Source of the DNA: Eledone cirrhosa
Taxonomy: Eukaryota
Reading direction: 5' to 3'
DNA length: 64,000 nt
NCBI GenBank assembly: GCA_964016885.1
Contig: OZ024741.1
Location: forward strand, 55,118,001 to 55,182,000
The translations under genes were made by a program, and so were the position numbers. Under the pieces are notes generated by a model. The model did not search any database. It worked only from the letters and a program-made list of their open reading frames with translations, and was not told the DNA's origin. Below, piece after piece: positions 17,634 through 18,429 of the stretch. Within the stretch, counting starts at the first letter, position 1; every line of letters begins with the position of its first letter.

Positions 17634-17848
17634 TATATATATATATATATATATATATATATATATATATATATATATATATATATATATATATATATAT
17701 ATATATATATGACAAGTAAGTACGTTTTGAAACAGTGAGCAAGTTTGAAATTAGAAAATAGAATAGCTTTCACCGTATTTTTGACTAAAGAAATTTTAGC
17801 CTGTTAATGGGGTTTAGAACCCTCAGATAAATGGAAAAAGATGAGTAT

Positions 17849-17919
17849 TGACGTACATGGGAGTCGAACCCACATCTTTGGTTATCCAGACCACTGTGCT
17901 ACCATTACACCAACACATC
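17849..17919 (-). ncRNA. tRNA-like sequence (mirror copy)
   Basis: Exact reverse complement of 17925-17995. Confidence 0.7.
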
Positions 17920-17924
17920 ACCCT

Positions 17925-17995
17925 GATGTGTTGGTGTAATGGTAGCACAGTGGTCTGGATAACCAAAGATGTGGGTTCGACTCCCATGTACGTCA
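17925..17995 (+). ncRNA. tRNA-like sequence (SINE head or tRNA pseudogene)
   Basis: Cloverleaf GATGTGT-TG-GTGT-AATGGTA-GCAC-A-GTGGT-CTGGATA-ACCAA-AGAT-GTGGG-TTCGACT-CCCAT-GTACGTC-A, with A box TGGTGTAATGG, B box GGTTCGACTCC and T5 ~10 nt downstream. Non-canonical: T37, GGA anticodon without a Ser long variable arm, and a Gln-like D arm. Confidence 0.7.
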
Positions 17996-18429
17996 ATACT
18001 CATCTTTTTCCATTTATCTGAGGGTTCTAAACCCCATTAACAGGCTAAAATTTCTTTAGTCAAAAATACGGTGAAAGCTATATATATATATATATATATA
18101 TATATATATATATATATATATATTTGTGTGTGTGTGTGTATATATATATATATATATGTATATATATATATATATATATATATATATATATATATATATA
18201 TATATATATATATATATATATATATATATATATATTTATATATATATATATATGTATACATATATATATATGTATATATATATATATATATATATATATA
18301 TATATATATATATATATATATATATATATATATATATATATATATATATATATATATATATAGATACATATATATGTATATATATATATCGTGAGAGAGA
18401 CTTGGGACATTTAATAATCTGTACTGATA

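Follow-up and report, generated by a model that had tools for sequence, protein, structure and literature searches.

SINEs (short interspersed elements) derived from tRNA and moved by LINEs (long interspersed elements) have a tRNA-derived region with A and B boxes and reach high copy numbers. Circular templates have been shown for retrozymes (PMC7229834) and proposed for Penelope-like elements (PLEs; PMC4209133), some clades of which have no hammerhead ribozyme (PMC8557442). In Sm-alpha and Sj-alpha of Schistosoma, the RNA polymerase III (Pol III) promoter is described as internal to the repeat, which leaves single copies unable to propagate (PMC2770079, PMC6765202), and the main text of a recent study of retrozymes does not contain the term "tRNA" (Li, Clavereau and Pollet 2026, bioRxiv 10.64898/2026.07.22.740005). 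Here we compare with these systems a palindrome at positions 17711-18081 of a 64,000-nt stretch of Eledone cirrhosa DNA (GenBank assembly GCA_964016885.1, contig OZ024741.1, positions 55,118,001 to 55,182,000 of the forward strand), referred to as the window. The palindrome is one insertion of an abundant repeat family with a unit of about 260 nt. In our reading, to which we assign a probability of roughly 0.6, this non-coding family bears a tRNA-like domain, lacks a hammerhead, and has been copied by PLE machinery into (TA)n tracts from a monomer-equivalent RNA that was likely circular.

The palindrome and its repeat family

The two arms of the palindrome (17763-17920 and 17924-18081) are 158 nt long, 100% complementary, and 3 nt apart, and each holds a tRNA-like domain with A and B boxes. 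This agrees with an earlier note on the same DNA, which had described identical tRNA-like units lying head to head, a tail of about 52 nt on one arm, and (TA)n on both sides. Unit positions are numbered from u1, the base preceding the tRNA fold, which in the window is 17924 on the plus strand and 17920 on the minus strand. The insertion comprises the following features.

17711..17923, minus strand: long arm, consisting of u258-260 (end of the linker) and u1-210; its 3' end is in the long class of reverse transcriptase (RT) start sites (about u205-215)
17924..18081, plus strand: short inverted arm, u1-158; its 3' end is in the short class (about u158-171)
17711..17762, minus strand: 52-nt tail found on one arm, the stretch that separates the two classes of 3' ends
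17849..17919, minus strand: tRNA-like domain of the long arm (Rfam, 49.7 bits; ARAGORN)
17925..17995, plus strand: tRNA-like domain of the short arm (Rfam); the anticodon loop varies by subfamily
17921..17923, minus strand: apparent spacer, identical to the last three bases of the 50-nt linker
17932..17942, plus strand, mirrored on the other arm: A box, from the sequence
17974..17984, plus strand: B box and T-loop; 17980 is u57, the equivalent of tRNA A58, with its mirror at 17864
17979..17989, plus strand: zone u56-66, in which most copies of the family are 5'-truncated or inverted
18005..18009, plus strand: run of five T (T5) 3' of the tRNA, candidate Pol III terminator
17634..17710: (TA)n target microsatellite, left
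18079..18389: (TA)n target microsatellite, right

A DNA search for the family yielded 547 candidates, 40 of which were scored and gave full-length matches with 90-97% identity. An exact 25-mer from the body occurs at least 1,638 times in the genome (control, 0), and a 28-mer of a sister subfamily, B, at least 836 times, these totals being lower bounds that count arms and periods and not insertions; the sequence is thus not single-copy, the first point on which the earlier note had asked for a check. The unit is arranged head to tail and consists of the tRNA-like u1-72, a body that ends at u210, and 50 nt of linker (u211-260) leading into the next tRNA. The exact junction between linker and tRNA occurs 422 times, and the tRNA is therefore not the head of the unit, as had been supposed. 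The 3 nt between the window arms, formerly taken for a spacer, are u258-260 on the minus strand and come from this linker, which lies 5' of the tRNA in tandem copies; judged by these bases, even the window copy extends slightly upstream of the tRNA.

Periods are 257-262 nt long in subfamily A and about 271-290 nt in subfamily B, and both subfamilies have the tandem unit of 150-400 nt with low GC that is typical of retrozymes. The unit has no open reading frame (ORF), is circularly permuted, and exists as dimers and trimers, with up to about three periods per arm. Between subfamilies, u9-64 agrees at 53-55 of 56 positions and the body at 47-50 of 58; in these loci, which were chosen on u9-30, the conservation points to a tRNA domain that may be under selection. 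Evidence from other organisms was limited to read pieces matching the family, 9 in X4 and 411 in X6.

Insertion geometry

To avoid a bias towards the best matches, the insertions were described from the 77 loci behind the first 100 listed matches of the 25-mer, all on one contig and chosen regardless of their ends. Inverted insertions make up 55 of these loci and direct ones 22, and (TA)n adjoins 120 of 132 3'-type ends. The 3' ends form two classes about 40 nt apart, u158-171 and u204-215, and in 49 of the 55 inversions one end is long (u195 or more) and the other short (u120-180). Poly(A) was present in none of the 77 loci, and a match resembling a target-site duplication (TSD) in one, in flanks whose TA repeats can hide TSDs. 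Among the best matches, 30 of 53 loci are inverted after removal of 8 duplicate or oversize loci; in subfamily B the figure is 13 of 21, and most ends there fall at b169-179 or b238-244.

Partial tandem repeats like the pseudo-long terminal repeats (pLTRs) of PLEs were also found, and four of five features expected of a PLE passenger are present, namely an inverted 5'-truncated arm, two classes of 3' ends, partial tandems, and an AT-rich or microsatellite target. The geometry matches the hallmarks described for PLEs (PMC8557442), and the two classes of 3' ends correspond to the pair of internal RT start sites by which the tail of the element PAc is defined in vitro (PMC11167929). Taken together, the inversions, the two 3' end classes, the targeting of TA, the absence of poly(A), and the single TSD-like match make Penelope-type mobilisation a well-supported reading of the insertion pattern. 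Of the "PLE-mobilised SINE" proposed in the earlier note, the mobilisation by PLEs is thus well supported, whereas a SINE in the ordinary sense, with a single transcript from a tRNA head and one unit per insertion, is not.

The inverted PLE insertions to which the palindrome had been likened (1696-4368, 5740-14495, 11769-12150, and 34870-36557) are all present in the window by self-BLAST. Pfam recognised GIY-YIG in only one of three window PLE ORFs, which from their motifs and layout we otherwise take to be PLE. In the copy at 11769-12150, the terminal hairpin shows 32 A>G among 34 substitutions (plus strand) relative to 1696-1883 and 4172-4368, and an inverted copy of the same hairpin at 7762-7957 shows 15 mirrored T>C. 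This one-stranded pattern resembles the trace that reverse copying of ADAR-edited RNA into DNA would leave, and it places the tail at the RNA's 3' end; by the same logic, the template of the 260-nt family would be the tRNA-sense strand. The family itself carries no ADAR marks (A>G 6.3 and T>C 7.1 per 1,000).

The template

Tandem periods of one insertion carry one haplotype. In subfamily A, divergence is 4.45% between tandem periods within an insertion, 4.04% between inverted arms, and 6.21% between separate loci, and subfamily-diagnostic sites are discordant in 56 of 728 comparisons between tandem periods (7.7%), in 87 of 1,260 between arms (6.9%), and in 30% between loci. Rare variants are common to several periods in 11 loci.

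A strand excess (460/732 and 97/388) led to a large array of pure subfamily B units, the only one of such size that was found.

G000:C28, ~19,440,624-19,716,545: pure head-to-tail array of 290-nt B units, 276 kb, about 950 units (L210-L222, L233, L273)

This array, of which roughly 140 kb of the 276 kb was sampled, begins after (TA)n, has units that are about 6% divergent, and is cut at its 3' end by a sequence with an ORF that we take, from its motif, to be Helitron-like. Three variants that are near-fixed in the array are absent from all 21 dispersed loci compared, and these loci also lack nearly all of its polymorphisms. The distribution of variants thus marks the array as a daughter of dispersed copies, and the satellite array was rejected as master locus.

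One haplotype per insertion, together with an array that is not the source, favours a circular or end-jumped monomer template. A monomer made endless, either as a circle or through jumping from end to end along a transcript with terminal redundancy, would explain the data most simply; small homogeneous master loci are less probable. The alternative that survives best builds on such loci and holds that PLE machinery copied read-through transcripts that were linear multimers and came from a small number of homogeneous tandem masters, with neither circle nor jump and with the tRNA as promoter or passenger only. Transcribable dimers and trimers exist, partial tandems are the normal layout of PLEs (PMC8557442), and, as the 276-kb array shows, multimeric loci can form; that array is not the source, however, subfamily A shows no large strand excess of the array-marking type (807/831 and 195/227), and the variants of each subfamily occur in every period. 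We therefore regard linear multimers as an unlikely source, if the least unlikely of the alternatives, and the stops described below weigh further against them.

The tRNA-like domain and the T-arm stop

In both arms the tRNA-like domain is recognised by Rfam (RF00005, 49.7 bits against a gathering threshold of 29, E 1.2e-07), and ARAGORN calls it Ser(GGA), a call that in the Rfam alignment is not accompanied by the long variable arm. Positions u33-34 of the anticodon loop read TG or GC in about equal shares and differ between subfamilies. The stable anticodon, U33, and matching arm type of a functional tRNA gene are absent, and the domain is probably not a decoding tRNA.

Copying stops preferentially within the T-arm. 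Among 132 5' ends, 47 lie at u62-63, and among the arms that reach u66, three stub arms being left out, 58 of 94 end in u56-66 (41 of 65 loci), compared with 3.8% expected, while none of 36 arms ends in u39-55. In subfamily B, 12 of 34 5' ends are at b57-65, four of them at 57-58. Sequencing reads give the same picture: among the joints listed (15 of 82), 14 have one side at u57-70, and the best-supported joint, found in sequencing runs X1, X6, and X11, is the u62-65 junction. A symmetric joint at or next to a CATG palindrome was found in 17 loci, and in many others one arm ends there and the other elsewhere; because of these asymmetric junctions, the CATG palindrome alone does not explain the stops in u56-66. 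At the second pass none of six arms (5 loci) stops, which is what rereading of one molecule would predict, whereas the independent tRNAs of a linear multimer should stop the second pass too. A further stop in the anticodon loop was considered and rejected (3 of 36 arms, p=0.10, not significant).

The furthest ends, u56-59, bracket u57, which corresponds to tRNA A58; u62 is the first position of the T-stem's G-C core. The methylated base 1-methyladenosine at this position (m1A58) is a known block to RT. Misincorporation at u57 in subfamily A (4/128, p=0.006) is a weak signal. The T-arm stop is likely a genomic record of how host tRNAs fold or are modified; a block by m1A58 is a possible cause, and a block by the fold or a true RNA end would be alternatives.

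Most copies lack the 5' half of the tRNA because copying stops at the T-arm. The window copy was read through the u56-66 zone and belongs to a minority that ends at the start of the tRNA: of 33 arms reaching u16, eight end at u253-16, with six at u1-16 (5.4% expected, p=0.008), a second and smaller stop, and two at u253-258. Ends of this kind would fit a Pol III start or a cut by RNase P, and the membership of the window copy in this class keeps Pol III initiation at the tRNA start a possibility. The T5 run to which the earlier note had drawn attention lies at 18005-18009 and is predicted to form part of a 17-bp helix with the linker (u244-260 : u76-92). At another locus (L008:1500-1718), a copy whose first bases are the 5' end of the tRNA forms the middle of a longer inverted repeat built from sequence lying downstream, a layout that suggests a read-through transcript beginning at the tRNA.

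Search for ribozymes

Rfam found no ribozyme in four loci at E up to 5, and the motif CUGANGA occurs in the 77 elements as six sporadic variants only. Scrambled (block-permuted) hammerheads (PMC10085705) served as a further search model, and a scan of 34 full periods in all block orders, with a scanner that recovered one of two positive controls, gave no strict or last-base-relaxed hammerhead core on either strand (0/34). The statement that the body contains no canonical hammerhead thus held, and the type I hammerhead that each period of a retrozyme carries is absent.

Several candidates were rejected. An antisense hammerhead with its core relaxed at C3/G8 occurs in 34 of 34 related periods, yet also in 17% of shuffles, and an antisense U3-A8 variant, found in eight B periods, has weak stems; the template strand is taken to be sense. 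A hammerhead relic (CUGA at u95, GAAA at u150) fails because it forms neither stem I nor stem II and because subfamily B has lost the CUGA. Hammerhead cores are carried by many other TA-inserted families in the flanks of the sampled loci; in the flanks of L025, L036, L037, L054, L093, L109, and others, the ends lie about 50-60 and 120-145 nt past GAAA.

These results bear on the next alternative, in which u56-66 would be a real 5' end of the RNA, produced where some nuclease, or a ribozyme that has escaped recognition, cuts the T-loop or T-stem, so that linear monomers give truncated copies and ligated circles give tandem ones. Retrozymes work in this manner (PMC7229834), and both the sharp boundary and the existence of two classes of molecules, which stop at the first pass or never, would fit a mixture of linear monomers and circles. 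We nevertheless consider it quite improbable, clearly more so than linear multimers, given that no sense-strand hammerhead was found in any block order of the full periods, that Rfam returned no ribozyme, and that subfamily B has not retained the CUGA at u95.

A tRNA-headed SINE of the conventional kind, which a LINE would have moved and in which the palindrome would be secondary, is largely refuted and barely credible: A and B boxes are present and a minority of copies begins at the tRNA start, yet the linker upstream in tandem copies shows that the tRNA is no 5' head, neither poly(A) or a LINE-type tail nor TSDs were found beyond the single TSD-like match, and 55 of 77 loci are inverted, with two fixed classes of 3' ends and a permuted tandem unit. 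Least plausible of all is an assembly or library fold-back artefact, for which the identity of the window arms could speak (matched by only two of 39 measurable pairs in the 77-locus sample), as could the fact that no read piece crosses the exact window junction, and against which stand the family-typical asymmetry of the arms, their ends at family end classes, the differing outer flanks, and the same inverted layout with diverged arms in most sampled loci and, at other junctions, in runs X1, X6, and X11. The palindrome sought in raw reads was in this way recovered as an architecture and not as the exact junction, and the simple reading of its perfect arms is a young insertion.

Candidate partners and other features of the window

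No autonomous partner emerged from the candidates considered. An 11-nt match of the unit to the termini of window PLEs is at chance level (E 5.4). Upstream of L005 lies the 3' end, complete with a hammerhead, of a different abundant family, and this segment shares no sequence with the unit. At this locus (L005:780-1975), a copy of 2.2 periods lies head to head, with no TA between, with that 3' end (2,081 candidates for the latter family), a joint that may represent a chimeric insertion from two RNAs. The PLE adjoining the window copy, a 540-aa ORF fragment of PLE-like RT with GIY-YIG type at 15948-17570 (minus strand), lies directly across the left TA tract; its family is also found about 3 kb from the end of the subfamily B array, yet it has no sequence in common with the unit and was rejected as partner.

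Elsewhere in the window, a PLE frame of 789 aa is open at 7927-10296 (plus strand); its first approximately 45 codons come from an inverted arm ending at 8061, and the apparent N-terminus is therefore likely spurious. Two further short palindromes adjoin TA tracts at 31006-31456 and 32535-32844, and a 329-nt direct repeat with 93% identity (28999-29327 and 29630-29948), which follows a TA run, resembles a partial tandem insertion. Tandem arrays occupy 54578-55696 (37-nt unit, 30 copies) and 55833-64000 (32-nt unit, more than 256 copies).

Discussion

Under the reading we prefer, PLE-type copying of a hammerhead-free, monomer-equivalent RNA, a PLE enzyme would nick both strands of the TA tract and start two cDNAs at two internal sites, as PAc does in vitro, and these cDNAs would join head to head into a palindrome with one tailed arm; we hold this course of events to be very probable. 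For the template, the odds lean slightly towards one period made endless, either as a ligated circle or by an end-to-end jump on a Pol III read-through transcript of about 1.3 periods, and long runs on such a template would produce tandem periods. The tRNA domain would, rather probably, fold and be handled as a tRNA, acting as internal promoter and/or as a processing signal that replaces the ribozyme, with its T-arm blocking the enzyme. More tentative, and rather less likely than not, is the proposal that the block is specifically m1A58 and that trimming afterwards brings the end of the cDNA back to the CATG microhomology at u62-65. A fuller version, which we think unlikely, would see ribozyme-free, retrozyme-like circles in which a tRNA mimic replaces the hammerhead, transcription, cutting, ligation, and methylation of the RNA are all left to the tRNA machinery of the host, and m1A58 stops RT in about 60% of runs; if it were true, the genome would hold a fossil footprint of tRNA modification, and this modification would act as a brake on the spread of the element.

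Several observations weigh against our preferred reading. Tandem, inverted, and between-locus distances are close to one another in subfamily B (3.76, 3.53, and 4.2%), where the haplotype test is low-powered. With its position 10 nt past the tRNA, the T5 run would terminate many Pol III transcripts. Around the tRNA, the fold predicted to have minimum energy corresponds in part to an alternative rod (-33.8 kcal/mol, slightly below the -31.2 of the cloverleaf), and the long arm is predicted to fold no better than shuffled sequences (z -0.46). The arms of one locus are not independent, so that arm-level p-values overstate significance, and the absence of second-pass stops rests on five loci. The misincorporation signal of subfamily A was not replicated in subfamily B (1/67, with a background of 0.76%). 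Finally, a comparison covering 510 kb of flanks and window gave no autonomous partner and no similarity beyond the family, and the tail shared with an autonomous PLE for which the earlier note had called was not found there.

The literature searched contained no description of a ribozyme-free, tRNA-bearing PLE passenger, and Repbase or Dfam may hold the family under another name; interest in the family is tempered by Sm-alpha as a precedent for a tRNA combined with a tandem unit. If our reading is correct, PLE passengers extend beyond hammerhead retrozymes, and the family bears on whether such passengers need a ribozyme at all. As a natural substrate of small size, with 260 nt, two mapped start sites, and thousands of junctions, it lends itself to the study of how PLEs build tandem and inverted insertions. 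The T-arm stop leads to a precise prediction, a one-nucleotide block that depends on the fold or on m1A58, and the daughter array would illustrate one way in which an insertion of PLE type can become a tRNA-related satellite.

Comparison with known systems

The family shares with animal non-LTR (long terminal repeat) retrozymes a non-coding, AT-rich tandem unit of 150-400 nt, dispersed partial multimers, and a proposed mobilisation by PLEs from circular RNA (PMC7229834, PMC7761336), the circle in the 260-nt family being one of two monomer templates that its haplotypes would favour. Unlike them, it has no type I hammerhead and contains a tRNA-like domain with A and B boxes. Sm-alpha and Sj-alpha of Schistosoma are likewise tRNA-derived, SINE-like, and tandem (PMC2770079, PMC6765202); in contrast to the Eledone family, Sm-alpha has an active hammerhead, and an insertion geometry of PLE type is not part of its description in these sources.

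Insertions of PLEs with pLTRs and non-autonomous Chlamys elements such as MRC1 have in common with the family partial tandems, an inverted 5'-truncated arm, and the targeting of microsatellites (PMC8557442), and PLEs also a tail, about 40 nt in length, that separates one RT start site from the other (PMC8557442, PMC11167929). The family differs from them in lacking an ORF, in its internal tRNA domain, and in sharing, within the 510 kb of flanks and window, no sequence found with an autonomous family. Hy/Pol III of Hydromantes and Xenopus satellite 1 are tandem satellites formed from a SINE-like, tRNA-related unit and in this respect resemble the subfamily B array; no link to PLEs is given in their table entries (PMC9659126), whereas Eledone combines dispersed insertions of PLE type and a daughter array in one genome. 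With LINE-moved SINEs the family shares a tRNA region with A and B boxes and a high copy number, and it departs from them in that the tRNA is not a 5' head, in the lack of a LINE-type 3' tail, poly(A), and TSDs, and in its frequent inversions and tandem periods. Compared feature by feature, the Eledone family appears to work in the manner of a non-LTR retrozyme or of Sm-alpha, from which its missing hammerhead sets it apart, just as the position of its tRNA and the form of its 3' end set it apart from SINEs.
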